Origin: an uncultured Thermococci archaeon | GTDB lineage: Archaea > Methanobacteriota_B > Thermococci > Thermococcales > Thermococcaceae | DNA: 18,564 nt | Assembly: GCA_964615185.1 (NCBI GenBank) | Contig: CAZTOS010000048.1 | Span: forward strand, 1-18,564 | Direction of reading: 5' to 3' | Shown: piece after piece, positions 1-16,134 of the stretch | How positions within the stretch are numbered: position 1 is the first letter of the stretch | How the letters are laid out: each line of letters begins with the position of its first letter | Position numbers and translations under genes: made by a program | The notes under the pieces: generated by a model | What the model was told of the DNA's origin: nothing | Database searches by the model: none | Seen by the model: the letters and a program-made list of their open reading frames with translations, nothing else

Positions 1-2
1 CT

Positions 3-374
3 GAACTCGACAGGACTAAAAGTGTTGAAACCCTTGAGAAGATTGTTAAGCTTGAAAGGGAAGTTCAAGGTTTGAGGATCCTCCTTGCTACATATCAGGC
101 AGACATGGGAAGACTTAACTTCATTAAAAATTATACAAGAAAAACTGCGTATGGTGTGCAAATTCTTTATTATCAGCTTCCTAAGGAAAGTGAGGTTCTC
201 AAAGAATACATTAGGAAAGTTAATCCGATTAGAAAGGATGTTGATTTAGAGTGGTTCCAAGGGTATTATCTTCAGGCTAAGGAGTTGATAATGTACAAGC
301 GTTTATTGGCTGATGTCGAAATTAAGAAAAAGTTGGAAGAACTTAAGAAAAGCAACCAATCAAACCTTAAATAA
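3..374 (+). CDS. 5'-truncated N-terminal (helical/coiled-coil) part of a probable exported protein; likely continues by +1 frameshift into 313..1203
   Basis: Frame is open from position 3 (ELDRTKSVETLEKIVKLEREVQGLRILL...), so the TTG at 72 is internal. Charged amphipathic helical sequence with no Cys. Overlaps the next ORF by 62 nt. Confidence 0.7.
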   Translation, partial: ELDRTKSVETLEKIVKLEREVQGLRILLATYQADMGRLNFIKNYTRKTAYGVQILYYQLPKESEVLKEYIRKVNPIRKDVDLEWFQGYYLQAKELIMYKRLLADVEIKKKLEELKKSNQSNLK

Positions 375-1203
375 TGAAGATATTCAATACATCTTAAAGA
401 GGCTTGATAAAATGAAAGCACTTCAAGAAAAATTAAACACTCACATTATAGACTCTGCAATTTTAGACGAGTATTTGAGGTTAAAAGAGGTAGGAAAACA
501 ACAAGTTATAATCCAGAGCGCTACAGTAACACCACTAGCCATAAACTTTGGAGGACTGCCTAGAGGAAATCTGTGTTGCCCAGATGATCCATACTACTGT
601 TCGCTCTGTGATTATCCAAAACAAATACTTTCTGATGATTTTTATGCTTCACCATGGACGCATGCATACGGGTTTGCAACATTCTATAATCTACAACCTA
701 TTGGAGTCTGGGTTGGTATATATGAAACGCCAGTGATACCGCCAGATGAGAGGTATTATTGGGGGATGTACTGTACCGAAGAATTTCCTTCAACGAATAA
801 TCCTGACGAACTCTGGAGTATGTACTGGCTATATGCTGTCTCTTTATATGAAATTGAGACAGGAAGCTCACAATTTGAAGACTTTGGATCCATCCAGATT
901 AAATTCTTTTATGACGGAACAGCATACAACTATTTTACTGGACAGTATCAAACTGCAAATCTAATATACCAGTACAATTGTAACAAAAATGGATGCTATA
1001 AATCGGATGTCCTAGATCCTTTACCCTCCAACCCCCAGTATCATCCAAGTCCATATACAGACACGGTGTACATATATGTCAAGGTGTTGGCATGCTGTAA
1101 CGGAGGACTTGTTGGAAGTACATGTAAGTGGGCTAATAGACATTGTGATAGTTGTTTTGCTCCGGATGAGTCAAAATCACAGAACTTTCCTTACGAAGGA
1201 TAG
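313..1203 (+). CDS. C-terminal part of the exported protein: helical linker, VTPL junction, then a Tyr-rich domain with 12 Cys
   Basis: 296-codon ORF. All 12 Cys lie after VTPL (526-537): CC, CxxC, C, CxxxxC, CC, C, CxxC. No good RBS or signal peptide at ATG 313. The stop TAG overlaps the AGGAGG RBS of the next gene. Confidence 0.7.
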   Translation: MSKLRKSWKNLRKATNQTLNNEDIQYILKRLDKMKALQEKLNTHIIDSAILDEYLRLKEVGKQQVIIQSATVTPLAINFGGLPRGNLCCPDDPYYCSLCDYPKQILSDDFYASPWTHAYGFATFYNLQPIGVWVGIYETPVIPPDERYYWGMYCTEEFPSTNNPDELWSMYWLYAVSLYEIETGSSQFEDFGSIQIKFFYDGTAYNYFTGQYQTANLIYQYNCNKNGCYKSDVLDPLPSNPQYHPSPYTDTVYIYVKVLACCNGGLVGSTCKWANRHCDSCFAPDESKSQNFPYEG

Positions 1204-1214
1204 GAGGATTGAGA

Positions 1215-2402
1215 GTGAAAGGTAATAAACTCCCTTTAGTTTTTCTTTTTGTTCTGCTTTTAGCTTCTTTAGTTTTAGTTATTCAAGAATTTCAAAAACG
1301 GGAAGATGAGAGAGCTCTTTCTAATGTTGCTGTTAATAATACTTCTATTCATTCATCCAAGTTTTTAGAAAACAGAACTCCTATTAAAGGTGAATTTAAG
1401 CCAATTTTAACTCTACTTGGTTGGGATTTTCAGCCTTTTGAAGATAGAATTTTTGTTTATTACAATGGGGCTCTCAAAGCTTATGAGATAGAGACGGGGA
1501 AGCTTCTTTTAAATATAACGCCTGTTTACGATTATTACTTTTCAAACCGCTATGCTTACATAAAAACTGACGATGGAAGTTTTGTTCTGGATTATGAGAC
1601 TTTAAGACTAGCACCAGTAGACACAGATAAAAATGTTAAATATGCTTTTAACCTCGGTAATTGCAGAATTACAGCAAGAGAAAAAAGCGTATTAGTAAAC
1701 TCCCAGATATTTAAGTTTAATTCAACCCCAAAAATTGCATTCTTTGACAGTGGCTTTGTGGTCTTTGGTCTGTTTGGAGCATCAGGTGAGAGGGTTTTAT
1801 TTTTCGATGAAAAATGTAGTCTGCTTAGTGATGTTGTGATTGAGTATTTTTCAGACTTCAAAGTTTTTGGAGATAGAATTTTCTTCATTGATAAGGAGTT
1901 ATATTCCAGAACCCTGCCAAAATTTCCGGAGATTGAGGGTGAGATGATTTTGCATGAGTATCTTAAGGAGTCTAAGGCCTATTTGTTTTCCAGTAATGGT
2001 ACTCTAATTGCCAATCTGACTCTTGGTGGTGCTATAGGCTTTCACAATGATACAATTTACACCATCTATCCGCATGGAATTGGGAAATTTTACCTGCTTA
2101 ATAAATCTCTGGAGAAAAAGACGATTGAATATGTTTTATATTCCGGATGGGCGGTTGTTCAGGGGGTTTATGGAGATTTTACTGAAGAATTCATATCTTT
2201 TGTTTATTGGGGCTTTTCTGGAGAAGCTGGAACATCATTCAGCAGCATCTGTGTTTATCCTTATGAAAGAACCATAAAATGCGTCCCTTACAGGCAAGAA
2301 GCTGAAAGGGTAAGCCCAATTGATGAGATAAAAGCCTGGGATAGATATTTTGCAATAATACCAAGAGGTTCTAGAGAGGTTGTTGTTTATGAGGTCAGGT
2401 AA
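1215..2402 (+). CDS. N-terminally membrane-anchored extracellular beta-rich (propeller-like) hypothetical protein
   Basis: AGGAGG at 1202-1207 favours GTG 1215 over TTG 1209. Basic N-terminus plus hydrophobic LPLVFLFVLLLASLVLVI. Many N-x-S/T sequons. Repeated short aromatic beta-strands (IFVYYNGALKAYEIETGKLL is a PQQ/propeller-like blade). Confidence 0.75.
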   Translation: MKGNKLPLVFLFVLLLASLVLVIQEFQKREDERALSNVAVNNTSIHSSKFLENRTPIKGEFKPILTLLGWDFQPFEDRIFVYYNGALKAYEIETGKLLLNITPVYDYYFSNRYAYIKTDDGSFVLDYETLRLAPVDTDKNVKYAFNLGNCRITAREKSVLVNSQIFKFNSTPKIAFFDSGFVVFGLFGASGERVLFFDEKCSLLSDVVIEYFSDFKVFGDRIFFIDKELYSRTLPKFPEIEGEMILHEYLKESKAYLFSSNGTLIANLTLGGAIGFHNDTIYTIYPHGIGKFYLLNKSLEKKTIEYVLYSGWAVVQGVYGDFTEEFISFVYWGFSGEAGTSFSSICVYPYERTIKCVPYRQEAERVSPIDEIKAWDRYFAIIPRGSREVVVYEVR

Positions 2403-2413
2403 AGGTGTTGAGC

Positions 2414-3334
2414 ATGAAGTTTAGGACAAACATTAAGAATGTCCATAGCATTGTTCTCCTTTTAATACTCTTAGCTTTGACTTTTTATGGGAGCTATAGG
2501 TTTCTTTTTGAAAATAGGGGAATAGCCGTTGTTCCTACGTCTCTACCTAATGATAGTTGCACCATTGAGGAGTTTTCTCCACCAATTAAAATTGAAATTG
2601 AGGAAGTTAATGTTCCGGTTGATGGTGGGTATAAGTCCCTATACACATTATTTAAGTTTTATAACAAGAATGGAACTCTCATAGGATACTGGAACACTAC
2701 AAGGAACTTTAACAAAGGATATTTCTACTTCAGAGATGGTTTTGTGGTCTGGAGTTATGATGGAGTCATCGAAATGATTTATTTTGATTATAACTTCACG
2801 GAAAGATGGTGGAGGAAGATATACAAAAGTGTTGGGGATTATGTGGACTTTATCCTATATAGCGTGTACGCTGATGAGGATCATATTTTTCTACTTACGG
2901 CAAATAGACATTTTGCAACATCAGAAGTTCAAAACTATTGCCTCTACTGGGGTAGCGTTGAAAAGGGCGACATTATTGAACGATTTTGCTCTGACAAGGA
3001 GCTGTCTTTACTTAGAGGAAAAGTGGTTGGGAATAAAGTTTACATCCTCTCAAATAAAGGTGTTTATGTCTTTACTTATACCGGGAAGCTCATAAAAAAG
3101 AAAAAGATTGAGCTGTCAAAGATTGAGAGTTTTGACGTGAATGAGAAATATCTTGCTTTTGCCTATCTAAGCAGTGACAAAACATCAAAACTATGTGTTT
3201 TGGCATCTAGCCTAAAATCCCAAAGGTGCATTGATGTAGAAGGGAAAGTGGAACAGCTGAACCTGTGTGGAAATTACCTCCTCCTGAAAACAGAGAATAA
3301 AGTTAAAACATTTGAAATTAAGGAGAATTCCTAA
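2414..3334 (+). CDS. Second membrane-anchored extracellular beta-rich protein, diverged paralogue of 1215..2402
   Basis: AGGTG RBS at 2403-2707-type spacing (2403-2407) before ATG 2414. TM segment SIVLLLILLALTFYGSY. Sequons NDS, NGT, NTT, NFT. Shares motifs with the upstream gene (FRDGFVVW vs FDSGFVVF; SKLCVL..RCI vs SSICVY..KCV; VKTFEI vs VVVYEV). Confidence 0.75.
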   Translation: MKFRTNIKNVHSIVLLLILLALTFYGSYRFLFENRGIAVVPTSLPNDSCTIEEFSPPIKIEIEEVNVPVDGGYKSLYTLFKFYNKNGTLIGYWNTTRNFNKGYFYFRDGFVVWSYDGVIEMIYFDYNFTERWWRKIYKSVGDYVDFILYSVYADEDHIFLLTANRHFATSEVQNYCLYWGSVEKGDIIERFCSDKELSLLRGKVVGNKVYILSNKGVYVFTYTGKLIKKKKIELSKIESFDVNEKYLAFAYLSSDKTSKLCVLASSLKSQRCIDVEGKVEQLNLCGNYLLLKTENKVKTFEIKENS

Positions 3335-3468
3335 TCAAATTCTAACTCATTTTCTTGTCAACTGTTCAGAAATTCTTATGTATAAATGCCAAAATTTGTC
3401 CAAATTTCAAAGTTTTTTGCATAAAAGACATAAACCATGAATGTAGTGTCAAAAAATAGGTGATAAAC

Positions 3469-4383
3469 ATGAATGCTGTTCAATTAGTTAAAAGAGAGAT
3501 TGCCCCAGCTATGGAAGTTCAGACCAAAGTCATTGAATATATGACAAGATTTTTTGTTGACAAAGGGTTTAAATGGTTGCTTCCAGTGATGCTTAGCTCA
3601 ATAACTGATCCTCTCTGGCCAGATCCGGCGGCGAGTGAAGCCTTAAAGCCTCCGGAGATAGAGGCATATGGTGGAAAGCTTAGATTAATGCATAGCATGA
3701 TTTTTCATAAGCAATTGGCAGTTGCTATGGGAATAGACAAGTTATTCATACTCTCTCCAAACATAAGACTTGAAGGAAGAGAAGCTGACGATGGAAAGCA
3801 TGCATATGAGTTCACCCAGCTTGACTTTGAAATAGCATATGCAACCATGGATGACGTTATGAGCTTAATCGAGGAGGCCATCTCTGGGCTTTTCAAAGAG
3901 GCAAGAAAGTGGGAAATTCTTGAGGAGCTGGGCAGAGAAGTTCCAAAGGCCAAGCCACCATTTAGGCGGTTCACTTTAGAGGAAATCAAAGCGGAATTCG
4001 GTGATGAAGATAGAGCAAGTGAAGCAATGGATGAACCATTCTGGATTACTGATATTGAGAGAGAATTCTACGATAGAGAAGATCCAGAGAGGCCAGGGCA
4101 CTTCAGAAACTATGATCTGTATTTACCTTGGGGTTATGGTGAAGTCTCAAGCGGCGGTGAGAGAGAGTGGGAATACGATATAATTGTCAGGAAGATGAAG
4201 AAAGCTGGGATAAGCCTTGAGGCCTTCAGGCCATACTTAGAGATTGCCAAAGCTGGTTTGCTCAAGCCTACAGCGGGAGCTGGCATAGGAATGGAGAGAC
4301 TGGTGAGGTTTATCGTTAGAGCAAAGCACATAGCTGAAGTTCAACCTTTCCCAAGAATTCCGGGTATTCCGGCGATTATCTGA
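3469..4383 (+). CDS. asnA: Archaeal asparagine synthetase A (AspRS/AsnRS catalytic-core paralogue lacking the anticodon-binding domain)
   Basis: Class II aaRS motif 2 (SPNIRLE...HAYEFTQLDFE) and motif 3 (GEVSSGGERE...AGAGIGMERLV, PFPR). About 304 aa with no N-terminal OB domain. GGTGA RBS at 3459-3463 places the start at ATG 3469. Confidence 0.93.
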   Translation: MNAVQLVKREIAPAMEVQTKVIEYMTRFFVDKGFKWLLPVMLSSITDPLWPDPAASEALKPPEIEAYGGKLRLMHSMIFHKQLAVAMGIDKLFILSPNIRLEGREADDGKHAYEFTQLDFEIAYATMDDVMSLIEEAISGLFKEARKWEILEELGREVPKAKPPFRRFTLEEIKAEFGDEDRASEAMDEPFWITDIEREFYDREDPERPGHFRNYDLYLPWGYGEVSSGGEREWEYDIIVRKMKKAGISLEAFRPYLEIAKAGLLKPTAGAGIGMERLVRFIVRAKHIAEVQPFPRIPGIPAII

Positions 4384-4386
4384 GGG

Positions 4387-4411
4387 TTTTTGATTTTGAA
4401 TTCCTCTTTTT
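4387..4411 (+). terminator. Probable archaeal oligo-T terminator of asnA
   Basis: TTTTTGATTTTGAATTCCTCTTTTT immediately after the stop codon. Confidence 0.45.
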
Positions 4412-4424
4412 ATAAATTCACTGT

Positions 4425-5026
4425 TTAGAGCTCTTTTATTTCATTTGCTCTGTCAAGTTCACCTCGCTTTATGATTTCGAGGGCGGAGGTATAGATGCCA
4501 AGCTTTAGAGCCGTTTCCTCGGTCAGCTTTTTCTTTGAAAGTTCATTGATTTTAGAGGAAAGCTTTTCAACGGCTTTTTCCAGCCCCTTCTGCTATTTTT
4601 CCAATATTGCATCTGTTCTTTTCCCGAGTTCTTTGGTATCTGTGAGTTTGTGGAACATTGCCGGCAGGATTGTCATTAGGCCAGCAAGTGTGTTCCATTT
4701 CTGAGCGTCTTCGAGGCTTTTGTGGATGTACTTTTTCCCGTAGTGCGGGAAATAATCGTGTGTGTTAGTGCCTTTCCTATCGCGTACTCTCTTGTTTTTA
4801 CGTCTGTGCCTGGGCTTCCAGGAATTTCTCCGTATTTTTTCTTTATATACTCTCTCAATCTGAGGCTGTGGAAGGACAGCGTGTGAGCATGAGTAATTTT
4901 GTCGATTATTGCGAAGTCCGCGGCTATCTTCTTCATTCACCCAATCTTCTTCTCGTATTTCTTATCGGACTTCTTGACGATGTAGTGGATCATGAGCATT
5001 TGGAGAATAAAGCCCAATTCACTCAT
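4425..5026 (-). pseudogene. Degraded ~200-codon hypothetical protein gene (two in-frame stops and one frameshift)
   Basis: GGAGG RBS, then ATG 5026 MSELGFILQMLMIHYIVKKSDKKYEKKIG-TGA(4937-4939)-MKKIAADF...; 1-nt shift near ~4760 into HDYFPHYGKKY...AILEK-TAG(4593-4595)-QKGLEKAVEKL...DRANEIKEL-TAA(4425-4427). The span is 602 nt, one short of 201 codons. Confidence 0.75.
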
Positions 5027-5077
5027 GGAGAGTCCTCCATTACTTAATTAGTCGTTCCATGACATAAATGGCTTTTG

Positions 5078-5127
5078 GAAAACCTTTTATACTTGCACCC
5101 CTACAAGTAACTATTGGGGGTGCAAGT
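5078..5127 (+). promoter_or_regulatory. BRE-TATA promoter plus perfect 11-bp inverted repeat (operator-like) upstream of ATPase 1
   Basis: GAAAACCTTTTATA at 5078-5091; ACTTGCACCCC (5091-5101) N15 GGGGTGCAAGT (5117-5127). The right arm contains the GGGGTG RBS. Confidence 0.7.
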
Positions 5128-5129
5128 TA

Positions 5130-6212
5130 ATGCTGTTCTCACCCTATCCAAAGACAAAAAGGGAAGATCTGTTCGACAGAGAAAGCGAGCTGAAGGAGCT
5201 TGAAGATGCCATAAATAGGGGAGAAAGGTTAATACTTCTCCTCGGCATGCGAAGACTCGGAAAAAGCTCGCTCCTCAACGTTGTGTTGAATGAACTTCCT
5301 AACCCTTCGGTGAAAATAGACGTGAGGAAGACCTATGCTGAATACTCCTCCGTAAACCGCTACATCATCGGCAAAGCCCTCCTCTCGTCGCTGAGCGGGA
5401 AGAAAAAGCTTGTTGAGGAGGTTAGGGCATTCCTGTCGAAAGTGAAGGGATTAAGTGTTTCAGGATTAAGGTTTGAGATAACCTCGAAAGACTTCTCAAT
5501 AACCGAGCTTTTGGAGGCACTAAATGAATACGGTGAGGAGAAGGGGAGGGTTATTATAGCATTTGATGAAGCTCAGTACCTGCGCTTTGGCGGAGCCACA
5601 AGATATGACGGTATTCTGGCTTACGCCGTGGATAATCTTGAGAACCTGACGTTCATCCTAACCGGCTCGGAGGTTGGTCTGCTCTTTGACTTCCTCAAGT
5701 TCGATAACCCAGAGGCTCCTCTATTTGGCAGATACCATCACGACATAATCCTTGAGAGATTCAGCAAAGAGTTAAGCAGGGAATTCCTCAGGAAGGGCTT
5801 TGAGGAAGCCGGGTTATCTATGGAAGAGAAAGAAATCGATAGAGCAGTTGAAGAGCTTGACGGAATTGTGGGTTGGCTTTCCTTGTACGGCTATATTAGG
5901 GTAACGAGAAAGCTCAACCACGAGAAAGCACTTGAAGAAGTTCTGAGAGAAGCCAAATCCGTGATAAACACAGAGGTTTCGAGGCTTTTCGCATACAGTC
6001 CGCGTTATAGAGTGATTCTAAAGGCTGTGGCTTTAGGCTATTCAAGGTGGAGCGACATCAAGGACTACCTAACTTTGAAGCTCGGCTACATCAACGACTC
6101 GAACTTCTCCAGCTTGCTTGAAAACCTTGTGAAGTATGGCTATATTGAGAAGAAGGAAGGACGCTACATGATTCCCGATCCAGTCCTTGCAAGGGTCTTC
6201 AGAGAGCTTTAG
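5130..6212 (+). CDS. Archaeal ATPase (ATPase_2/PF01637-like, STAND-related) with C-terminal winged helix
   Basis: N-terminal LFDRESEL, Walker A GMRRLGKSS, Walker B IIAFDEAQ, ILTGSEVG, PLFGR, GIVGWL, and C-terminal wHTH ending YMIPDPVL. Confidence 0.9.
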   Translation: MLFSPYPKTKREDLFDRESELKELEDAINRGERLILLLGMRRLGKSSLLNVVLNELPNPSVKIDVRKTYAEYSSVNRYIIGKALLSSLSGKKKLVEEVRAFLSKVKGLSVSGLRFEITSKDFSITELLEALNEYGEEKGRVIIAFDEAQYLRFGGATRYDGILAYAVDNLENLTFILTGSEVGLLFDFLKFDNPEAPLFGRYHHDIILERFSKELSREFLRKGFEEAGLSMEEKEIDRAVEELDGIVGWLSLYGYIRVTRKLNHEKALEEVLREAKSVINTEVSRLFAYSPRYRVILKAVALGYSRWSDIKDYLTLKLGYINDSNFSSLLENLVKYGYIEKKEGRYMIPDPVLARVFREL

Positions 6213-7593
6213 CTTGTCCAAGTTTGGTCTCTTTAAAATCCCCTAAATCCCATACGAGCCAGCCTTCATTCCTTAACCTTTCCTTTCCCTCCAAACTCTT
6301 AGCCACCAGCCCGTAGCTCTTTTCCCACCTTTCCAGCCCCACTAACTCACTCTTCCTCTCCAAATCTCTCAAAATCCCCATGGCTTCTCCCTCTTTCAAG
6401 TCCTTCCACTTAACCTCAGCAAATAGTGCCTTTTTCTCCCGCTCATTGAGAGCAACGAGATCAATCTCCTCATCCTTACGCCACCACTTCCCAATCCTCG
6501 TGAACTTGAACGGCAGTTTTTTCGCTTTGTTCAGCTCTATAATGAACTGCCTCGCAACCTCTTCAAAGACGAAGCCAAGATAATGGTTGAAGCTGATATC
6601 AAAGTCCTCAAGCGCCCCATCGGGAAAACCGCTCTCAATCTCCTCGAAGTACGGCGCAACAAAGCGGAACCAGAAGGCAAAGTAAAGGTCCCTGAAGCGG
6701 TAAATACCGCGCTTCGCTTTTCTGCTAACGGGTAATTCTCTCCTTAAAATTCCAAGGTCTTCGAGGATTCTTAAGTATCGTGCGGTGTTCTTTGGCTCAA
6801 TGAATGAATACTGGGCGATTTCATTGACCCTCCTTTTTCCCCTCGCAACCGCCTCGAGTATTGTGTAGTAAGTTTCCGGCTCCCTAAATTCCTCCTCAAG
6901 TAGCTCTTTTGCCTCTCGGAAGAGAAATGCATTAGGGTCGAAGAAGTTCTTCTTTATTTCGCTTTCAATGTTTTTCCCGCTGAAGAGCTCAAGGTAGCGA
7001 GGAACACCTGATGTTACAGCGTAGAGCTTTACTGCATCCTTTGGACTTAGACTGGAGAACCATTCAAAGAGATGCTTGAACCTCAGAGGTTGGAGGTTCA
7101 GAGTGGCGTCGCTTCTCCCGTAGAGTGGGCTTGAGTAATCGAAGAAGCTTCTTTTGAGCAATCCAACGGATGAAGCTGATAAAATAAGCATAACATTACT
7201 TTCGTTAAGGACTTCATCTACTATGCTCTGAAACTCCGCCTCAATTTCAGAGTACCTCAGCAGATATGAAAACTCGTCGAGAAAAATCACCAGTCTTTCT
7301 CTGCTCTGAGAGGCGATAAAGCGGAATGCGTCAGTGAACGTTGAGAAGTTTGGGGAGGGAATACCAAAATACTTCCCAATAGCCCTGTTGAGCTTTGTTA
7401 GGTTGTACTCCCAGACCCTCTTCTCGAACTGAACGGATATTGCCTTTTTATTCTTCAAAAATTCACGGACAAGACGACTCTTGCCGATTCTTCTCCTCCC
7501 GGTGACAAGGACGAGGGTAAATTGGTCTTGGCGATACAGTCTCTCGAGTACTTTGAGCTCTTCTCTCCTATTCACAAATTTTCGAATCTTCAT
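6199..7593 (-). CDS. Archaeal ATPase with wHTH and DUF234 / PD-(D/E)xK-like nuclease tail
   Basis: FVNRREEL, Walker A GRRRIGKS, Walker B VIFLDEFS, SPLYGR, GVPRYL, YRFRDLYFAFWFRFV, WW..DEEIDLVAL..FAEVKW. True start is ATG 7593 (MKIRKF), ~25 nt after a TATA box. The 52-aa extension in the ORF track belongs to other elements. Confidence 0.9.
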   Translation of the reverse strand: MKIRKFVNRREELKVLERLYRQDQFTLVLVTGRRRIGKSRLVREFLKNKKAISVQFEKRVWEYNLTKLNRAIGKYFGIPSPNFSTFTDAFRFIASQSRERLVIFLDEFSYLLRYSEIEAEFQSIVDEVLNESNVMLILSASSVGLLKRSFFDYSSPLYGRSDATLNLQPLRFKHLFEWFSSLSPKDAVKLYAVTSGVPRYLELFSGKNIESEIKKNFFDPNAFLFREAKELLEEEFREPETYYTILEAVARGKRRVNEIAQYSFIEPKNTARYLRILEDLGILRRELPVSRKAKRGIYRFRDLYFAFWFRFVAPYFEEIESGFPDGALEDFDISFNHYLGFVFEEVARQFIIELNKAKKLPFKFTRIGKWWRKDEEIDLVALNEREKKALFAEVKWKDLKEGEAMGILRDLERKSELVGLERWEKSYGLVAKSLEGKERLRNEGWLVWDLGDFKETKLGQAKAL

Positions 7594-7630
7594 AATATAA
7601 TCGTGAGTCGAAAAATATAAAAAGGTTTCG
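7579..7630 (-). promoter_or_regulatory. BRE-TATA promoter (probably leaderless mRNA) plus imperfect 36-bp palindrome across the start codon of ATPase 2
   Basis: Minus strand reads CGAAACCTTTTTATA (7630-7616). 7579-7614 TTTTCGAATCTTCATAAT|ATAATCGTGAGTCGAAAA has 13/18 Watson-Crick pairs, with the outer 7 perfect. Confidence 0.6.
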
Positions 7631-7706
7631 CTGAGGTTCTCAAAGTTATTCTCATCCTTTCCAAGTCTGTTAAAACCCAGATGTCTTGTTCTTTTTCCAT
7701 AGAGAA

Positions 7707-8145
7707 CTACTTTATTTCCAAATCTATTTAAATGCACCCTCTCCCACATTATTTCTTCTTTTCTGTGCTCTGGTTTTTCAGCTGGGTATCCAATCCCACT
7801 GATGCAGAGAATTTTTAGGAGTTCTCGGACTTCTCATCATCCTGCATCCTTTCGTGTATATGGCCCCAGCAGACACCTAAACCCAAGGCAGTTGCTGCCA
7901 GCTAAATGTGCTCAGCAACTATTGAGCAGTCCTCTCATCCCCACAGACAACTATCGAGCGGGTCTTGTTTTAGAAATTTATTAACTCTCTATCGTCAACA
8001 ATCACAAAATGCCAAGGCTTTCTGTTCTTTGAGTTTGGGGAATAAAAGCCGCTTCAAGAATTTTCTCTACGTATTCCCTTGGCACTTTTCCCTCCTGATA
8101 CTTTCTAATGCTCCTCCTCTTCTTAACCACTTCAAAGAAATCCAT
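7707..8145 (-). pseudogene. Nitroreductase-family flavoprotein pseudogene
   Basis: GGTGA RBS, ATG 8145 MDFFEVVKKRRSIRKY...ILEAAF/fs/SPNSKNRKPWHFVIVDDREL.../AIVVCGDE/DCSIVAEHI*LAATALGLGVCWGH...DDEK/VRELLKI/LCISGIGYPAEKPEH...WERVHLNRFGNK. Shows the hallmark RRSIR, P-S-N-PWHF, LGLG-CW and GYP motifs, with frameshifts, a TAG at 7902-7904 and several short deletions. Confidence 0.9.
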
Positions 8146-8223: not shown

Positions 8224-11091
8224 TTAAAAGTTAAACAGACTTTTAACATCGTACTGTGCTTTTCTTGCCTTTCTCACTTTCAACTTCATTCCAAAGGCGT
8301 TTGTGACTGTTCCTTCTTTTTCCGCCCAGAGTCCACTTGGTAGTATTAGGTATTCGCCTTTTAGCTTACTTATTACAGGTGAGTTTCCTATGATGACGTA
8401 AGCCTCTGCCTCTGGTATGCCCGTAACTCCTGCCTTTATTAATCCCGCAGCATTCACTCCATCGTGGAGGATTAAAGTCGGCACGTCCATAGGCTCAGCC
8501 GGACCTTCAATTATTGCCACTTCGTAGCCTTCTTCCACTATCTCCTTGCCCTTCAATAGTACCTTTAGGAGAGGATATTTCTCTACGTTAGCTTTTAGGA
8601 GGACGCGCTTTGCATTTCTAATGTCTTCAAGAGTTGCGGTTGAAGTTCCACCATCAACGGTTGAGCCTATTGGAATTCCCCTTCTTTCTGCAAGCTCTTT
8701 GAAGAACGCTATCTCTTCATTTGTGAGAGATGGGGTGAGTATTATGGCATATTCTTTTTCTTTTAGGAACTTTTCAGCGTCTTCCCAGCTTATAGCATTT
8801 CCGTTCAAAATTGGCTGGGTAAGGTCTTGAGCCCATGGTCTTTCAAAGCGGCAGTAATCGCAGATGTATCCATTCCACGAGTCTTTTCTGCTTGAAGCCC
8901 TAACTAAGATGTCGTTGTAGACCTCTATGTTCATCTCACACGCAAATGAACATCCGTTGCAGACTGTTTTCACCGGTTGGGTCTTCCAAGGTCCGGGCTT
9001 GACGAACGGAAGCTTCTCGGTTATAGCACCTACTGGACAGATGTCTATCATCTCCCCGATGAACTTGCCCTCCATGTCTCCAAGGGTCTCCCCAAGTGGC
9101 GGTGAGATTCTCGTCTTAAATCCGCGGAAGAGGTAGTCCAACACTCCCTCCCCGGCTATTTCGTGGGTAAAGTTGACGCACTGGCCGCAAAGAACGCACT
9201 TGTTGTTGTCTAGCACAACATTGGGATGAGTTTCGTCTATCTCGAACTTGTTCTGCTCTCCCACAAAGGCATCCTGTTTTGCATCATAGAGCGTTGCATA
9301 CTCCCTAAGCTTGCATCTGAAAACCTCCATACATCCGCAGCTCATGCACCTCTGAGCTTCTCTAAGAACCATTTCCTCGTCCATAGTTGGTTCCACTTCT
9401 TCAAAGTTCCTCTTTCTAATTTCTGGGTCGAGGAGCTTTACTTTTGCCCTTGGCTTTCTCTCCACATGTTCATAATCTTTCTCCGTCACTTTCTTCCAGT
9501 GGTTGTAGGGCCTTAAGTCAAAGAGCACTCTGTAAAGGTCTTCATCATGTATTACTTCCTCAATGTGCTTTGATGGGTTCAGAAGCACTTCTCTTGCCTT
9601 TTCGAGCTTACCCTTGAGATAGAGATCTATCATTATCGCCGCCCTTCTTCCGGTTGCAATGCTCTCTATAACTGTTGATGGCCCGAGAACGAGGTCGCCA
9701 CCTGCAAAGACACCCGGGATATTAGTTTGGAGGGTTATTTCATCCACCAGAGCTTTCCCACGTTTTGCCTCAATGCCAAGAGCTCTAAGGAACTCTTCAT
9801 CACAGTACTGGCCTATTGCGAGAATAACGTTATCCGCTTTCACCCGAAATTCTGATCCTTCAATTGGAATTGGCCTTCTTCTGCCAGATGCATCTGGTTC
9901 GCCCAGTTTCATTTTTATGAGTTCAACCTCTTCCACTTTCTCCTTACCAATGATTTTTACGGGATTAGTAAGGAACATGAACTTGACCCCTTCTTCCTCC
10001 GCCTCTTTTACTTCCCTTGGATTTGCGGGCATTTCCTTTCTTGAGCGACGATAAACTACTGTAACCTCGGCACCAAGCCTTAAAGCCGTCCTTGCAACGT
10101 CCATTGCAGTGTTTCCACCGCCTACCACAATTACTCTTTCTCCGAGCTTTACCTCCTCGCCCATGTTAACCTTTCTGAGAAACTCTATCCCGTGCATTAC
10201 TCCTTCGAGCTCTTCTCCTTCTATTCTCATCTTTCTGCTCTTCCAGGCGCCAATCCCAAGAAACACCGCATCGTATTTTTCTCTAAGCTCGTTCAGTGTG
10301 ATATCTCTTCCAAGAGCCGTATTGGTTTTTACCTCTATTCCGGTGTCTATTACGGTTTTTATGTCCTTATCGAGAATATCTCTTGGAAGTCTGTAGGGTG
10401 GGATACCATAGCGCATCATACCGCCAAGCTGAGGCATTGCCTCTATTATGGTCACTTCGTGTCCCATTGTTCTGAGGTAGTAGGCACATGCCAGTCCTGC
10501 GGGTCCACCACCAACAACTGCCACCCTCTTCCCAGTCGAAGGGGGAATTTCCGGCATCCAGGGACCATTTTCAAGATCATAATCTGCTGCGAACCTTTTC
10601 AGCTGTCGTATTGCTAAGGGCTCATCTACAAGGTTTCTTCTGCATTCATCTTCACAAAATGCCGGGCAAACTCTTCCAAGAACTGCGGGTAGGATAAATT
10701 TCTCTTTCATTAGCTTCACTGCATCGTGGTACCTCCCCAGGGCAATTAATGCAAGGTATCCCTGAACGTCGCTATGTGCGGGGCATCCCTGCTGACAAGG
10801 TCCTATACAATCACCGTAATGATCGGAAAGAATTAGCTCCAAAGCCGTTCTTCTCATCTCTATTATTTCATCGCTCAAAGTCTCGATTGAAAGTCCTTCT
10901 GTAGGTTTGAGAGTACAGGATGTTGTGATTCCCCTTGGGGTTTTCACCAGACAGAGACGGCATGAGCCATAAGGATCAATTGCTTCATTATAGCAGAACC
11001 CCGGTATGTGGGTTATCTCTCTGAGGAACTCAATAAGCGGCTTTTCTTCGGGAACATCAAATTCTTTCCCGTTGATCGTAACCTTGACCAT
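8224..11091 (-). CDS. nsoC: NuoG/FdhA-N-type Fe-S scaffold with inserted GltD-like FAD/NADPH domain (NsoC; catalytic subunit of NfnABC/Bfu-type complex)
   Basis: 2Fe-2S (GFC...SCRLC...TSC), HYGDCIGPCQQGCP, GRVCPAFCEDEC, GGGPAG (FAD), GGGNTAMD...YRRSR (NADPH), RCMSCGC, KCVLCGQC, CNGCSFAC...C, and a truncated Mo-pterin-like tail. GGAGGGTGA RBS places the start at ATG 11091 (MVKVTING). Confidence 0.9.
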   Translation of the reverse strand: MVKVTINGKEFDVPEEKPLIEFLREITHIPGFCYNEAIDPYGSCRLCLVKTPRGITTSCTLKPTEGLSIETLSDEIIEMRRTALELILSDHYGDCIGPCQQGCPAHSDVQGYLALIALGRYHDAVKLMKEKFILPAVLGRVCPAFCEDECRRNLVDEPLAIRQLKRFAADYDLENGPWMPEIPPSTGKRVAVVGGGPAGLACAYYLRTMGHEVTIIEAMPQLGGMMRYGIPPYRLPRDILDKDIKTVIDTGIEVKTNTALGRDITLNELREKYDAVFLGIGAWKSRKMRIEGEELEGVMHGIEFLRKVNMGEEVKLGERVIVVGGGNTAMDVARTALRLGAEVTVVYRRSRKEMPANPREVKEAEEEGVKFMFLTNPVKIIGKEKVEEVELIKMKLGEPDASGRRRPIPIEGSEFRVKADNVILAIGQYCDEEFLRALGIEAKRGKALVDEITLQTNIPGVFAGGDLVLGPSTVIESIATGRRAAIMIDLYLKGKLEKAREVLLNPSKHIEEVIHDEDLYRVLFDLRPYNHWKKVTEKDYEHVERKPRAKVKLLDPEIRKRNFEEVEPTMDEEMVLREAQRCMSCGCMEVFRCKLREYATLYDAKQDAFVGEQNKFEIDETHPNVVLDNNKCVLCGQCVNFTHEIAGEGVLDYLFRGFKTRISPPLGETLGDMEGKFIGEMIDICPVGAITEKLPFVKPGPWKTQPVKTVCNGCSFACEMNIEVYNDILVRASSRKDSWNGYICDYCRFERPWAQDLTQPILNGNAISWEDAEKFLKEKEYAIILTPSLTNEEIAFFKELAERRGIPIGSTVDGGTSTATLEDIRNAKRVLLKANVEKYPLLKVLLKGKEIVEEGYEVAIIEGPAEPMDVPTLILHDGVNAAGLIKAGVTGIPEAEAYVIIGNSPVISKLKGEYLILPSGLWAEKEGTVTNAFGMKLKVRKARKAQYDVKSLFNF

Positions 11092-11092
11092 C

Positions 11093-12898
11093 TCAATCAC
11101 CCTCCTTAGCATCAACTATCTCTATTGCATTGAAGCGGCACACTTCATAGCATGTTCCGCACTTTATGCAGGTTTCCTGGTTAATTATGTGCGGCTTTCC
11201 TCTCTCTCCACTGATGGCTTTTACTGGACACATTATCGCACACGCAGTACAGCCCGTGCACTTGTCGGTAATTATAACGTATTTTATGAGAGGCTTACAA
11301 ACTTTGGCGGGACACCTTCCTTCTATATGGGCCAGATACTCGTCTCTGAAGTATTTAAGGGTCGTAAGAACTGGATTTGGTGCCGTTTGTCCAAGACCGC
11401 ATAGAGAACCTGCTTTGACCATTAGTGCAAGCTTCTCCAGCTTTTCAAGGTCTTCCAGAGTTCCTTCGCCTTTGCTAATCTTATCCAGAATCTCCCACAT
11501 CCTTTTTGTTCCCAAACGACAGAATGTGCACTTTCCACATGATTCCTTCACGGTGAAGTCCAAGAAGAATTTTGCAACATCTACCATGCACGTGTCTTCG
11601 TCCATAACCACCATTCCACCGCTTCCCATTATTGCACCCGTTGCAGTGACGCTCTCGTAATCAACGGGAGTGTCAAAGAGATAATCGGGAATACATCCTC
11701 CAGATGGGCCTCCAAGCTGTACGGCCTTTATCTTCTTGCCCGTCTTTGTTCCTCCTCCAATGTCGTATAGTATTTCTCTTAGAGTGATTCCCATTGGGAC
11801 CTCTACATTCCCGCCATGCTTGATCTTTCCAGAAAGAGCGAAGACCTTTGTGCCCTTGCTTTTTTCGGTTCCCAAAGATGCGTAGGCTTCCCATCCATGC
11901 TTTATTATCCAAGGTACATTTGCCCAAGTTTCAACATTGTTTATATTGGTTGGCTTACCCCAGAGGCCTTTTTGGGCTGGATAAGGTGGCCTCGGCCTTG
12001 GCATCCCTCTCTTACCTTCAATAGACGCCATTAGTGCAGTTTCTTCTCCACATACAAAGGCTCCGGCACCTTCTTTTATAGTGATGTCGAAGGAAAATCC
12101 ACTTCCCAAGATGTTCTCTCCTAAGAATCCTTTTTCTCTTGCCTGCTTTAAAGCGATTTTGAGCCTTTTTACTGCCAGAGGGTATTCAGCACGAACATAG
12201 ATAAACCCTTTTGTAGCTCCAATAGCATAAGCCCCTATTATCATTCCCTCTATAACTCTATGGGGATCCCCTTCAAGCACGTTTCTGTCCATAAAGGCTC
12301 CGGGGTCTCCCTCGTCGGCATTGCACACAATGTATTTTTCATCTCCCGGGGCCTCTCTGGTGAATTTCCATTTAAGCCCTGTTGGAAATCCTGCTCCACC
12401 TCTTCCCCTAAGCCCGGATTTTATAATGATATCTATTATCTCTTCGGGCTTCATTTTGAGAGCCTTTTTGAGTGCTTCGTAACCACCGACAGCTATGTAC
12501 TCGTCTATGTTTTCGGGGTCTATGTATCCCGAATTTTCCAAAACTATTTTTTTCTGCTTTGCAAAATACCCATCGATGTCCCAAGTTTTCCTTTCTCCGT
12601 TTTCCCACCAGTCCCTTTTGACAATCCACTCTTTTATGGGTTTTCCGTTTATAACGTGCTCTTCTATTATTCGCGGCACTCTATCGGGTGTAACGTGGCC
12701 ATAGGTAATGATTTCGTTCTCGGTAATAACGTCAAGAAGAGGTTCTCTATAGCACATCCCTACGCAGCCTACTATTTTGAGCTTGATGTCGAGGTTTCTC
12801 TTCTCCAGTTCTTCTTTCACGGCTTCATACGTTTCTTTAGCTCCGGCTGCGATTCCACAGGAGTTCATTCCCACAGCGATAGCCTTAATTTCAGACAT
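11093..12898 (-). CDS. nsoB: NuoF/HydB-like FMN/NADH-binding subunit (NsoB / BfuB-type)
   Basis: N-terminal thioredoxin-like Fe-S domain (SCGIAAGA, GCVGMC), GRGGAGFP, CNADEGDPGAFMD, GAFVCGEETAL, GGPSGGC, SCGKCTFCR...SLCG, HIEGRCPAKVC, and two C-terminal CxxCxxCxxxC motifs. Confidence 0.93.
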   Translation of the reverse strand: MSEIKAIAVGMNSCGIAAGAKETYEAVKEELEKRNLDIKLKIVGCVGMCYREPLLDVITENEIITYGHVTPDRVPRIIEEHVINGKPIKEWIVKRDWWENGERKTWDIDGYFAKQKKIVLENSGYIDPENIDEYIAVGGYEALKKALKMKPEEIIDIIIKSGLRGRGGAGFPTGLKWKFTREAPGDEKYIVCNADEGDPGAFMDRNVLEGDPHRVIEGMIIGAYAIGATKGFIYVRAEYPLAVKRLKIALKQAREKGFLGENILGSGFSFDITIKEGAGAFVCGEETALMASIEGKRGMPRPRPPYPAQKGLWGKPTNINNVETWANVPWIIKHGWEAYASLGTEKSKGTKVFALSGKIKHGGNVEVPMGITLREILYDIGGGTKTGKKIKAVQLGGPSGGCIPDYLFDTPVDYESVTATGAIMGSGGMVVMDEDTCMVDVAKFFLDFTVKESCGKCTFCRLGTKRMWEILDKISKGEGTLEDLEKLEKLALMVKAGSLCGLGQTAPNPVLTTLKYFRDEYLAHIEGRCPAKVCKPLIKYVIITDKCTGCTACAIMCPVKAISGERGKPHIINQETCIKCGTCYEVCRFNAIEIVDAKEGD

Positions 12899-13355
12899 TG
12901 AGTTTCCCCTCTTTGAGATTTCTAATGATTTTTCTAACCTTATCAGGCGTTAATTTTCCATAAACCTTTCCGTTTATCATTATGACAGGAGCTAAGCTGC
13001 AGCAGCCAAGGCAAGCCACTCTTTCAAGAGTTATGAGGCCATCAGGGGTTGTTTGACCTTCTTCAATCCCCACTTCTTCTCTTATAGCTTGGGAGATGTT
13101 CACTGCACCATTAACATGGCAAGCCGTTCCATGGCATATCCTTATCACGTACTTACCAAGCGGTTCAAAGCGGAATTGAGCATAGAAAGTCGCTACTCCA
13201 TAAACCCTGCTTAGGGGAATGTTTAAATATTTAGAAATTTCTTCGAGGGCTTCTTTAGGCAGATAGCCAAATATTTCTTGAGTTTTCTGCAACAATGGGA
13301 TCAGAGAGCTGGGATTCCGCTCATAACGGTAGATGTAGTCGAATTTGGGATTCAT
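12891..13355 (-). CDS. nsoA: NuoE/HydC-like 2Fe-2S subunit (NsoA / BfuC-type)
   Basis: VYGVATFYAQF, ICHGTACHV, ACLGCCSLAP. The GGTGA RBS favours ATG 13355. Overlaps nsoB by 8 nt. Confidence 0.93.
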   Translation of the reverse strand: MNPKFDYIYRYERNPSSLIPLLQKTQEIFGYLPKEALEEISKYLNIPLSRVYGVATFYAQFRFEPLGKYVIRICHGTACHVNGAVNISQAIREEVGIEEGQTTPDGLITLERVACLGCCSLAPVIMINGKVYGKLTPDKVRKIIRNLKEGKLNV

Positions 13356-13402
13356 AACTATCACCTTATACTGCCATTCACGATATTTTTATTGCATTAA
13401 GA

Positions 13403-13417
13403 CTTATAAATGCACAT
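13403..13417 (-). promoter_or_regulatory. Putative TATA box of the nso operon
   Basis: Minus strand ATGTGCATTTATAAG; TTTATAA lies ~50 nt upstream of the nsoA start. Confidence 0.45.
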
Positions 13418-13427
13418 TAAAGTATAT

Positions 13428-13464
13428 GTTTGTAACATTTGGTTGGTCACCTTATGTTTAAAAA
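13428..13464. promoter_or_regulatory. SurR binding site array (GTTn3AACn5GTT plus further phased half-sites)
   Basis: GTT-TGT-AAC-ATTTG-GTT-GGT-CAC-CTTAT-GTT-TAA-AAA, with GTT at 13428, 13442 and 13456 (14-bp period). It lies between two redox operons of the kind known to be SurR-controlled. Confidence 0.75.
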
Positions 13465-13474
13465 ATTCTTAAAT
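13460..13474 (+). promoter_or_regulatory. Putative BRE-TATA of the hydrogenase operon
   Basis: AAAAAATTCTTAAAT about 55 nt upstream of the shyB start. Confidence 0.45.
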
Positions 13475-13525
13475 CGAACCTTTACAAACATACATTACTA
13501 CTAAAATGGAATTTGGGTGATTACC

Positions 13526-14530
13526 TTGAGGTATGTAAAGCTTCCATCTGAGAATTTTGAAGAATTCTTTAATTCTCTAAAAAGATGGGGGACAGTTTAT
13601 GCTCCAGTAAAACAGGGAAATATTTATGCCTTTAAGCGAGTTGATACCTTAGGAGAAGTTTCATTAAACTACACCCGCACCATGCTACCTCCAAAAAAGT
13701 TCTTTGTTCGTCCAAAAGATACTCTTTTGAAGCTAAAAAACGGTAGATGGGAAGAAATCAGAGAGGTTGAAAAGATAGTCCTCTTTGGTGTTCATTCATG
13801 TGACATTCATGGATTGCAAATATTGGATAAAGTTTATCTCAATGAGCCTGTTGACCCATACTACAAAGCAAGGAGGGAAAATACAGTCATCATAGGCATA
13901 AGCTGCATGCCTGATGAGTATTGCTTCTGTAAGAGCTTAGGTACCCACTTTGCAATGCATGGCTTTGACTTGTTCTTGCATGAGCTTCCAGATGGGTGGC
14001 TTGTTAGAGTTGGAAGTGTAAAAGGGCATGAAATAGCATGGGCAAATGAAAGCCTTTTTGAAGAGATTGATGAAGAGGATCTGAAACACTTCAAAGAGTT
14101 TGAAGAAAAGCGCTCTGCTTCATTCAAAAAGCATTTGAATAAAGAAGGATTAGCTGATATGCTGGATTTGGCATTTGATAGTCCAGTGTGGGAAAAGTAT
14201 GAGCGTATTTGTCTTGGCTGTGGGAACTGCAACATGGTGTGTCCAACATGCAGATGCTATGAGGTCTGTGACTACTGGATAAATGCATATGAGGCAGTGA
14301 GAGTCAGGAGATATGATTCTTGTTTCATGGAAAGCCATGGACTTGTGGCAGGTGGTCACAACTTCAGACCAACACGTTTGGATAGATTTAGGCACCGATA
14401 CTACTGTAAAAGCTATTTTGATCCATCTGCGGGCTTCAACTGCGTAGGTTGTGGAAGATGTGATGAGTTCTGTCCAGCTAAGATAGAGCATGTTAAGGTT
14501 CTTGACGAAATTAGGGAGGCATTAAAATGA
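13526..14530 (+). CDS. shyB: Soluble NiFe hydrogenase II (sulfhydrogenase II) beta subunit
   Basis: TTG start after GGTGA gives MRYVKL. Motifs LPPKKFF, GVHSCD, CMPDEYCFC, CLGCGNCNMVCPTCRC, CVGCGRCDEFCP. Length and sequence resemble SHII rather than SHI beta. Confidence 0.92.
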   Translation: MRYVKLPSENFEEFFNSLKRWGTVYAPVKQGNIYAFKRVDTLGEVSLNYTRTMLPPKKFFVRPKDTLLKLKNGRWEEIREVEKIVLFGVHSCDIHGLQILDKVYLNEPVDPYYKARRENTVIIGISCMPDEYCFCKSLGTHFAMHGFDLFLHELPDGWLVRVGSVKGHEIAWANESLFEEIDEEDLKHFKEFEEKRSASFKKHLNKEGLADMLDLAFDSPVWEKYERICLGCGNCNMVCPTCRCYEVCDYWINAYEAVRVRRYDSCFMESHGLVAGGHNFRPTRLDRFRHRYYCKSYFDPSAGFNCVGCGRCDEFCPAKIEHVKVLDEIREALK

Positions 14531-15396
14531 ACCCGTTTCAAACTTATGATGCGAGAATTTTGGAGGTAAAGGAGCTTACACCGAGGGAGAAGCTTTTTAC
14601 ACTAAGATTTGTTGATCCAGAAATTAACAGGGAATTTACATACAAGCCCGGTCAGTTTGTTATAGTTGATATTCGAGGCTTTGGAGAGTTCCCAATAAGT
14701 CTGTGCTCATCCCCCACAAGAACAGGGTATTTCCAGCTGTGTATAAGAAGGGTAGGAAGGATGACAAAATACATGCATACACTTAAGGAAGGGGACATTA
14801 TCGGCATTCGTGGACCATACGGTAATGGCTTTCCAATGGAAGAGATGGAAGGTTCCAATCTGCTCTTAGTCGCTGGGGGGCTTGGGATGGCTCCATTGAG
14901 AAGTGTTCTTTGGTATGCCATTGACAGCGGAAAATACGAGCAGATATATCTATTCTATGGAACGAAAAGCTATGAGGACATTCTATTTAGAGATGAAATC
15001 ATTCACCTCCTGAAGCATGGAGAGGCTATGAACTGTAAAGTAAAGCTTGCTTATGAAGTTGAAAGCCCCTCATGCATTTATCTGGAAAAGGGCTTTGCTC
15101 CTAAGGTCTGCAAAGGTGTTGTAACAGATTTATTCAGAGGAGAAGAGTTTGACGTAGAAAATACTTATGCTTTAATCTGCGGGCCTCCAGTGATGTATAA
15201 GTTTGTTATAAAGGAGCTTTTGGGCAGAAAGCTCTCTCCAGGCAGGATTTACATGACACTTGAGAGGAGAATGAGATGTGGAATAGGCAAGTGCGGTCAC
15301 TGTATTGTGGGAACAAGCACGTCAATAAAGTATATCTGCAAAGATGGGCCGGTCTTCACGTATTGGGAAGCTCTTTCTACAAGGGGGTTGATTTAA
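14527..15396 (+). CDS. shyC: Soluble hydrogenase II gamma subunit (FAD/NAD(P), 2Fe-2S)
   Basis: PGQF, PISLCSSP, RGPYGNGF, AGGLGMAP, CGPPVM, MRCGIGKCGHC...CKDGPVF. ATGA-type overlap with shyB. Confidence 0.92.
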   Translation: MNPFQTYDARILEVKELTPREKLFTLRFVDPEINREFTYKPGQFVIVDIRGFGEFPISLCSSPTRTGYFQLCIRRVGRMTKYMHTLKEGDIIGIRGPYGNGFPMEEMEGSNLLLVAGGLGMAPLRSVLWYAIDSGKYEQIYLFYGTKSYEDILFRDEIIHLLKHGEAMNCKVKLAYEVESPSCIYLEKGFAPKVCKGVVTDLFRGEEFDVENTYALICGPPVMYKFVIKELLGRKLSPGRIYMTLERRMRCGIGKCGHCIVGTSTSIKYICKDGPVFTYWEALSTRGLI

Positions 15397-16134
15397 ATGC
15401 TGAAGCTGGGAGTTTTTGAGCTGACAGACTGTGGAGGCTGTGCACTTAACATCCTTTTCCTCTATGATAAGCTGTTTGATTTACTCAAGTTTTATGAGAT
15501 CAAGGAGTTTCACATGGCATCAAGCTTTAAGGAGCATGATCACCTTGATGTTGCAATTGTCACCGGAACAGTATCATGCCAGAGGGATCTGGAAGTTTTA
15601 AGGCATGCTCGCAATTATTCCAATTACTTAATTGCATTAGGAACTTGTGCAACTCATGGCTCTGTTCAGGGAGCTGTTGAAGGGAAGATTAGAGATAAGC
15701 TTGAGAAAGTTTATGGAACAAGGGCAAACCCCATGAAGGCTCTTGACCCAAAGCCAGTAATAGAATACGTAGCCGTCGACTTTGCTCTCCCAGGATGTCC
15801 TTATGATAAGATGGAGCTTTATCAACTCCTCATTGACTTGGCAAAAGGCATTGAGCCAGTAAAGAAGGATTATCCAGTCTGTATTGAGTGTAAGCTCAAT
15901 GAATACGAATGCGTTCTTGTGAAAAAAGGAGTGCCCTGTTTGGGTCCGATAACCCTTGGTGGATGTAATGCAGTGTGCATTAAATCGGGATTGGGCTGCA
16001 TTGGATGCAGAGGGCCTTTACCAAAAGATGCGAATCCTGCAAGTGAGTTTGAGATTCTTAAGGAGTTGGGATATGATGAGGAATACATACGAAAGAAGTT
16101 CAAGACATTTGCAAGGGGTGAGCTGAGATGGTGA
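15397..16134 (+). CDS. shyD: Soluble hydrogenase II delta (small) subunit
   Basis: TDCGGC, GTCATHG, PGCP, VCIECK...C, CLGPIT.GGCNAVC...CIGCRG. Confidence 0.92.
   Translation: MLKLGVFELTDCGGCALNILFLYDKLFDLLKFYEIKEFHMASSFKEHDHLDVAIVTGTVSCQRDLEVLRHARNYSNYLIALGTCATHGSVQGAVEGKIRDKLEKVYGTRANPMKALDPKPVIEYVAVDFALPGCPYDKMELYQLLIDLAKGIEPVKKDYPVCIECKLNEYECVLVKKGVPCLGPITLGGCNAVCIKSGLGCIGCRGPLPKDANPASEFEILKELGYDEEYIRKKFKTFARGELRW

Follow-up and report, generated by a model that had tools for sequence, protein, structure and literature searches.

A disrupted candidate effector gene beside intact genes for membrane-anchored partners in an uncultured Thermococci archaeon

Introduction

What could be the role of a three-gene unit in which the gene for a predicted secreted, cysteine-rich protein is broken and two genes for membrane-anchored proteins downstream of it are intact? 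This question is raised by positions 3 to 3334 of contig CAZTOS010000048.1 (C48 in the following) of an uncultured Thermococci archaeon of the family Thermococcaceae (assembly GCA_964615185.1). The window analyzed here, 18,564 nucleotides in length, is the start of this contig, and the genome comprises 2.26 Mb. Based on the nucleotide sequence, an original prediction had interpreted the unit as an archaeocin or polymorphic-toxin cassette. Our analysis revealed that C-terminal domains of the gene 1 family are exchanged together with the first downstream gene and that these partner genes outlast the gene 1 copies. On balance we lean toward a secreted effector directed against neighboring cells, which is accompanied by surface immunity proteins and is polymorphic within one protein family; toxicity, cleavage and binding are predicted features of this system. 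The unit consists of the following elements:

3 to 374, plus strand: 5' part of gene 1 from the helical pro-region, truncated by the contig start and ended by the TAA at 372-374
369 to 371, plus strand: A-run with an additional base, which shifts the frame and breaks gene 1 (gap in comparison with loci L083, L122 and L125)
373 to 540, plus strand: remainder of the helical region of gene 1 up to the T-P-L-A junction (529-540), of which P-L is conserved in most relatives
541 to 1203, plus strand: Cys/Tyr-rich C-domain of gene 1, 220 amino acids, presumed active part according to sequence and model
1202 to 1207, plus strand: ribosome-binding site AGGAGG of gene 2, overlapping the TAG that terminates gene 1 (sequence)
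1215 to 2402, plus strand: gene 2, 395 amino acids, N-terminal membrane anchor, 9 sequons, likely beta-propeller
2403 to 2407, plus strand: ribosome-binding site AGGTG of gene 3, abutting the TAA of gene 2 (sequence)
2414 to 3334, plus strand: gene 3, 306 amino acids, anchored at the N-terminus, member of the commonest partner family, likely a partial beta-propeller

The organization of these three co-directional genes as one tightly coupled, AT-rich unit was borne out, and both ribosome-binding sites are located where they had been proposed. The GC content of the unit is 36.5%, compared with 43.1% in the rest of the window and 40.6% in the genome, and only 3% of 609 genome windows of the same size are as low in GC.

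Results

C-domains Are Exchanged Together With the First Partner Gene

C-domain alleles recombine onto N-terminal parts (N-parts) at the P-L junction together with the first partner. The N-part was searched in 97 genomes with one query each, which resulted in 43 matches, 33 of them in frames of at least 385 amino acids and the other 10 in fragments. Following the model of polymorphic toxins, a conserved N-part had been expected on many unrelated C-domains, but all 33 long frames carry one homologous C-domain. The variation is allelic within one domain family and is not a swap of unrelated toxins. To compare effectors and partners, 29 gene 1 homologues were paired by hand with the first downstream gene, and both parts were measurable in 28 of them. 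Among the resulting 378 pairs, which are not independent of each other, partner similarity tracks the identity of the C-domain (Spearman 0.46, partial rank correlation 0.36) and does not track the identity of the N-part (partial 0.07). In detail, the N-parts of L093 and L102, and likewise of L034 and L047, are 94% identical, with C-domains of 47-52% identity and unrelated partners. The opposite combination is present in L036b/L102 and in the copy on contig C17 of our genome compared with L045, where the C-domains are 91% and the N-parts 61% identical and the partners are related. Calculated per block of 25 residues, L093 and L102 share 76-96% identity up to residue 250 and 23-63% beyond, and the pattern is reversed for L036b/L102. 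The switch in identity is therefore located around residue 250, at the P-L junction, in both directions.

The C-domain type of the window is followed by a partner of the gene 2 type at four different chromosomal sites (C48, L083, L122 and L125). Furthermore, a 29-residue remnant of this C-domain type precedes the gene 2 orthologue in L047 (G089), an array that is headed by another allele. Orphan C-parts, which are mostly short remnants, were identified in L083, L047, L049 and L106. In the close gene 1 allele at L083:4656-8100 (G094), the broken effector is followed by the gene 2 orthologue, an orphan second C-part and the partner belonging to the latter.

Partner Genes Outlast Effector Genes

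For an analysis of gene loss the Thermococcaceae loci were scored by hand after removal of duplicates, of nine loci from other families and of three contig-end cases (L097, L113 and the last tip of L110). Partners outlast effectors. An intact first partner stands beside 17 of the 21 broken or remnant effectors and a broken one beside the remaining 4, whereas the 28 open effectors are accompanied by an intact first partner in 25 cases, a shortened one in L041 and a broken one in L047 and L093. Thus, 17 loci with a broken effector and an intact partner compare with 2 loci showing the reverse; the nominal P of 0.003 for 17/19 is overstated, owing to the kinship among the loci and to their identification in part by means of these genes. 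At some cassette sites arrays of partners are present with little or no trace of an effector (L103-L108), and no trace at all was detected in L104 and L105.

These arrays also bear on another explanation of the unit, a structural or nutritional complex at the cell surface, in which a propeller anchor tethers a secreted adhesin or enzyme to the membrane and diversity arises from phage or substrate pressure. The translational coupling, the sequons and the anchors would be compatible with such a complex, and so would a stand-alone subfamily of gene-3-like proteins away from cassettes (L114, L115) and the fusion of the C-domain to another region in P0058. However, anchors left without their cargo would be expected to decay, but arrays from which the effector is gone still contain up to three intact partners (L103, L106), and different types of proteins fill the partner slot across lineages. 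We consider this explanation unlikely.

Gene 1 Is Disrupted by a Frameshift

Gene 1 does not form the single open reading frame that had been assumed. An additional A in the run at 369-371 leads to a stop of the first frame at the TAA 372-374, and the remainder is encoded in another frame. An assembly error was considered and set aside: contigs of two other sequencing studies, X2 (82-1224) and X7 (336-682), cross the site without gap or difference and contain identical letters, as does L126. This agreement makes an assembly slip unlikely, and the population probably does carry the lesion. Programmed frameshifting was also considered, since the G094 copy has an independent shift, a one-base loss about 40 nucleotides from the lesion of the window; as intact alleles exist, inactivation is the simpler explanation. 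Phase variation at the A-run is also possible.

The 5' piece of gene 1 is 87% identical to residues 80-201 of the intact protein P0036 (477 amino acids). The positions of the signal peptide and of the CxxC-x-C motif fall outside the window. The proposed cysteine-free helical N-part holds for the visible part, which contains no cysteine, and the corresponding region is all-helical in the AlphaFold2 (AF2) model of the intact relative L043, but most intact relatives carry a CxxC-x-C cluster after the signal peptide. Matches of the full-length model were limited to generic helical folds. The junction appears as a low-confidence linker in this model, and we infer that T-P-L-A (529-540) is the predicted cleavage site. 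With 12 Cys and 25 Tyr in 220 amino acids (541-1200), the C-domain proved to be as rich in these residues as had been noted.

The missing 5' end is probably a collapsed repeat, because contigs C74 and C63 end in the promoter-like element of the family behind housekeeping genes. The sequence of C74 corresponds to the genes that precede the equivalent site in G089. This element, a TATA-like sequence about 50 nucleotides upstream, is common to 16 aligned copies with an intact start, together with a G-rich ribosome-binding site, and may serve as promoter. An exporter or protease gene, which had been suspected upstream, is not conserved among the loci read, and judging from the housekeeping genes on C74 and C63 there is probably none adjoining gene 1.

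In total, four effector copies are present in this genome. Three of them are broken, by a frameshift, a TAG or a deletion, and each of these stands beside intact partners. In addition to the frameshifted copy in the window, the broken ones are C17:10840-12237 with a TAG after the signal peptide and the internally deleted copy at C31:22282-22648. The fourth copy, C105:3-1187, has an open frame and is truncated by the start of its contig within the stretch that it shares with C48.

The C-domain Contains Conserved Motifs and Shows dN Far Below dS

Two motifs are conserved in the C-domain, S-I-Q-I-K (889-903) and W-x-N-x-H-C-x-x-C-F-A-x-D...Q-x-F (1129-1188). Distant relatives retain S-I/V-Q-I/V-K and N-x-H-C...D...Q. 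In three loci of family f3 the slot of the first partner is occupied by a membrane-anchored paralogue of the effector, in which R replaces Q119 and which has neither C78 nor the N-x-H-C knot. The absence of these residues from the paralogue is a hint that Q119, C78 and N-x-H-C make up a functional site. The paralogues (L084:2453-3490, L086:3234-4268 and L092:5603-6673; P0060) are possibly decoy-type immunity proteins.

The model of the C-domain is confident (predicted local distance difference test 94, predicted TM-score 0.91), but the fold searches establish neither a known nor a new fold. Foldseek returned no match at E<=0.001 in PDB and BFVD. The best VIA match among 48,161 chains was a designed protein (Z 5.2, root mean square deviation 2.5, 58 aligned residues), and there were weak OB-fold-like rows with Z 3.3-4.9. 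In a sequence search of PDB with the C-domain profile nothing was found under E 0.14, the ESM Atlas contained no usable match for the C-domain, with all leads from P0036 below 0.8, and neither Pfam nor NCBIfam nor PHROGs named a family for the effector.

Nonsynonymous (dN) and synonymous (dS) divergence were compared for all three genes. For the C-domain in comparison with G094 dN is 0.09 and dS is 2.3, and the corresponding values are 0.22 and 1.17 for gene 2 and 0.11 and 0.59 for gene 3. As dN is far below dS throughout, the lesion in gene 1 is recent. These values also concern the idea of a neutral, decaying mobile island, whose patterns would result from hitch-hiking and deletion bias alone. 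Numerous pseudogenes, the low GC content and the scattered sites fit this idea, but it is at odds with the low dN of C-domain, gene 2 and gene 3 relative to dS, with the conservation of the motif across three further families of the class and with the lack of an integrase or transposase conserved beside the loci read. We regard it as highly improbable.

Genes 2 and 3 Likely Encode Beta-Propellers of Different Partner Types

Both partners possess a single N-terminal hydrophobic segment, in agreement with the anchoring by one transmembrane segment that had been predicted. The reported richness in sequons applies to gene 2 (9 compared with 1.9 expected, reached in 0 of 2000 shuffles) but not to gene 3 (4 compared with 2.5, P=0.24). 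A relationship between both genes exists at the profile level only (hhalign probability 60%, E 9e-5), and BLASTP revealed no similarity (E 1.5). The statement that they resemble no known family has to be revised at the profile level: the profile of gene 2 matches designed beta-propellers (Tako8, E 2e-9), and two sister partner clusters, aligned jointly, match PQQ/WD40 beta-propellers (PQQ_2 in 8 of 14 members, best PDB E 2e-20). The gene 3 profile had no significant match in PDB. Four partner clusters are linked by profile matches, and both genes likely encode beta-propellers. In other families of the class different proteins fill the partner slot.

Genes 2 and 3 had been treated as equal partners, but only gene 2 tracks the C-domain type of the window. 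Judged by this co-occurrence, gene 2 is the matching partner of this C-domain type and a predicted immunity or receptor protein. Co-folding of the gene 2 ectodomain with the C-domain gave scores of 0.00, 0.41 and 0.01 (mark 0.32), which were rated as no answer and are evidence neither way. Gene 3 is not conserved behind this C-domain type and is therefore read as an accumulated partner, probably left over from another C-domain type. It shares 81% identity with the gene that ends the G089 array and 34% with the first partner in L043. Contigs of run X3 cover genes 2 and 3 at a depth of about 20, and their upstream sequence differs at 1240.

A more distant subfamily of stand-alone gene-3-like proteins away from cassettes is represented by C108:3305-4162 of this genome (G000), a copy split by a TAG, and by L114 and L115, in the latter case beside an ABC transporter. 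Proteins of about 520 amino acids with two gene-3-like halves are encoded at L112:6765-8318 and L116:5736-7298; these loci contain no effector trace, and their site is one that cassettes use in other genomes.

Distribution and Genomic Context

The gene 1 family is unnamed, and its members TK1739, TON_0229 and OCC_03172 are all annotated as hypothetical. Intact relatives have 460-480 amino acids and consist of a hydrophobic N-terminus, usually CxxC-x-C, a helical stretch of about 200 residues, a G-I-x-P-L junction and a C-domain of 210-230 amino acids. The hydrophobic N-terminus is a putative signal peptide. With one query, the C-domain was detected in 31 of 97 genomes of the family. Within the phylum, 41 of 133 genomes gave profile matches; they represent 4 of 6 families and extend the distribution beyond the Thermococcaceae. 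A search of 1.84 billion representatives yielded 34 matches, 2 of which, P0048 and P0057, turned out to be repeat-protein artefacts and were discarded. One distant match belongs to a cluster named Methanofastidiosia.

Some versions of the domain deviate from this architecture. P0061 and P0062 are stand-alone C-domains of 178-180 amino acids with few Cys and no signal peptide, which retain Q-x-K, N-R-H-C, D and Q; none of the viral contigs encodes a relative of P0061. In P0058 and P0044 the C-domain directly follows a signal-like N-terminus and is fused to a further C-terminal region.

Cassettes of this patchy, multi-copy family occupy many unrelated insertion sites. In our window the site is marked by a housekeeping gene outside of the module:

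3469 to 4383, plus strand: asparagine synthetase A (NCBIfam NF005054, 478 bits, cut-off 309)

In G089 the same insertion site beside asparagine synthetase A is used. According to labels read off the translations, the regions 5130-7749 and 8224-17378 of the window contain two archaeal ATPase-like genes in convergent orientation, a flavin/Fe-S oxidoreductase encoded by three genes of the minus strand and an operon of four genes for a cytosolic NiFe hydrogenase. An Rfam search of 1-6500 gave no match.

Discussion

The logic of an effector with extracellular partners, as put forward in the original prediction, is in line with our results: the family is multi-copy and of patchy distribution, the exchange involves C-part and partner jointly, and the partners occur in arrays and outlast the effectors. 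Constant neighbors, vertical inheritance and a known fold, which had been named as counter-indications, were not found. We therefore slightly favor an effector against neighboring cells with surface immunity proteins. The predicted pro-protein would be exported, presumably by the Sec route, and its disulfide-rich C-domain is likely to be released by cleavage at P-L-A. This domain would then harm neighboring Thermococci at the cell surface, where envelope glycan, S-layer or lipid may be the target and where Q-x-K and N-x-H-C may have a catalytic role. The adjoining membrane-anchored, likely beta-propeller proteins would directly bind and neutralize the matching variant. At this site the strain would be immune but disarmed, with gene 1 frameshifted and genes 2 and 3 intact.

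Several points weigh against this interpretation. No toxin domain is recognizable in the C-domain by profile, and the homology of all 33 C-domains is unlike classical polymorphic toxins. Physical adjacency alone could co-transfer a C-domain and its partner, and the correlation between both is no proof of binding. The strength of the loss asymmetry is overstated by its nominal P, and a ligand-receptor system predicts an identical asymmetry. Furthermore, an open effector is located beside a frameshifted first partner in L093 and beside one without C-terminal anchor in L047, which is awkward for an obligately lethal toxin unless sequencing errors or other partners account for it.

Part of this evidence would equally suit a non-lethal system of kin recognition or signaling, in which the C-domain would act as a secreted ligand specific for the strain, with the propellers as surface receptors that guide aggregation or the choice of partners for DNA exchange. 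The allelic variants of a single stable, disulfide-rich domain and their matched partners would fit such a system, no toxin family was recognized, the two open effectors coexist with damaged partners, and the same alternative has been put forward for the VARTIG system (PMC8416519, Discussion). On the other hand, the partners cross the membrane once and expose few residues to the cytoplasm, a conserved signaling gene is absent from the vicinity of the loci, this genome has broken versions of three of its four ligand copies, and the degenerate paralogues, in which the conserved polar residues are missing, are indicative of a catalytic site. In our opinion kin recognition is rather doubtful, though more probable than the surface complex discussed above.

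Within the preferred interpretation of an anti-neighbor effector, a more specific proposal can be offered tentatively: the C-domain might be a heat-stable extracellular enzyme with a new fold and a site composed of Q-x-K and N-x-H-C, which attacks the archaeal envelope. It would represent a class-wide archaeocin family of the Thermococci, engaged in a race for specificity by allelic swapping, with surface beta-propellers as immunity proteins in one lineage and catalytically dead copies of the effector in another.

The system is organized like VARTIG, but it belongs neither to VARTIG itself nor to halocin C8 or the classical polymorphic toxins. The C-terminal part of halocin C8 is rich in cysteine, a feature that had led to its comparison with gene 1. 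Size, architecture and neighbors differ, and no match to halocin C8 was obtained with intact members against Pfam and NCBIfam, library copies in which the presence of the respective models was not checked. Both are secreted archaeal precursors from which a C-terminal part is presumed to be released. ProC8 has 283 amino acids, is exported by the Tat route, gives rise to a 76-amino acid peptide, contains the immunity function in its own N-part and is adjoined by genes for an ABC transporter (bioRxiv 10.64898/2026.07.27.741052). In contrast, the gene 1 family has a precursor of about 470 amino acids, a folded domain of 220 amino acids, separate partner genes and no conserved transporter.

The VARTIG module of the Thermococcales is built on arCOG07710, a protein with over 500 amino acids, immunoglobulin (Ig) domains and the motifs GN and DNNxxxGG (Makarova et al., 2021; PMC8416519). 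The module is likewise patchy, with a long secreted gene in first position, a recombining C-terminus and variable membrane proteins that follow and track the C-terminal subfamilies (PMC8416519). The gene 1 family differs from it by its length of about 470 amino acids, its helical and Cys-rich composition, its propeller partners and its distribution beyond the Thermococcaceae. No CARDB/Ig match in Pfam was obtained for 16 members, DNNxxxGG is absent from the C-termini of the family, and accessions of the family were not found in the portion of the VARTIG supplements searched (PMC8416519). In common with polymorphic toxins there is a constant 5' body, a 3' part replaced together with the downstream cognate gene, strings of partners and C-terminal remnants, but the exchange concerns alleles of a single domain, known toxin domains were not recognized by profile, delivery repeats are missing and the partners are extracellular (Zhang et al., 2012; PMC3482391). 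According to the VARTIG paper, predicted archaeal polymorphic toxin systems had no experimental characterization (PMC8416519). Tsi1, an extracytoplasmic immunity protein with a partial beta-propeller, provides an analogy only: such a protein outside the cytoplasm is encoded beside the effector Tse1, which acts on the envelope, but there is no sequence link, and Tse1/Tsi1 is bacterial, delivered by a type VI secretion system and directed against peptidoglycan (PMC3391265). No description of the family, its locus tags or accessions was found in the literature searched, although Makarova et al. 2019 (mBio) may list it as a candidate, and the parts consulted of PMC6393860 and PMC9425974 do not mention it.

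The family is a compact two-gene candidate with a member, TK1739, in the genetic model organism T. kodakarensis. Its many natural alleles are suited for cross-protection matrices, and its domain is confidently modeled and without a clear structural relative. If the effector kills, it would show how archaea of hydrothermal vents compete and which parts of their envelope are attackable; if it is not lethal, the family would still be a strong candidate for kin recognition.

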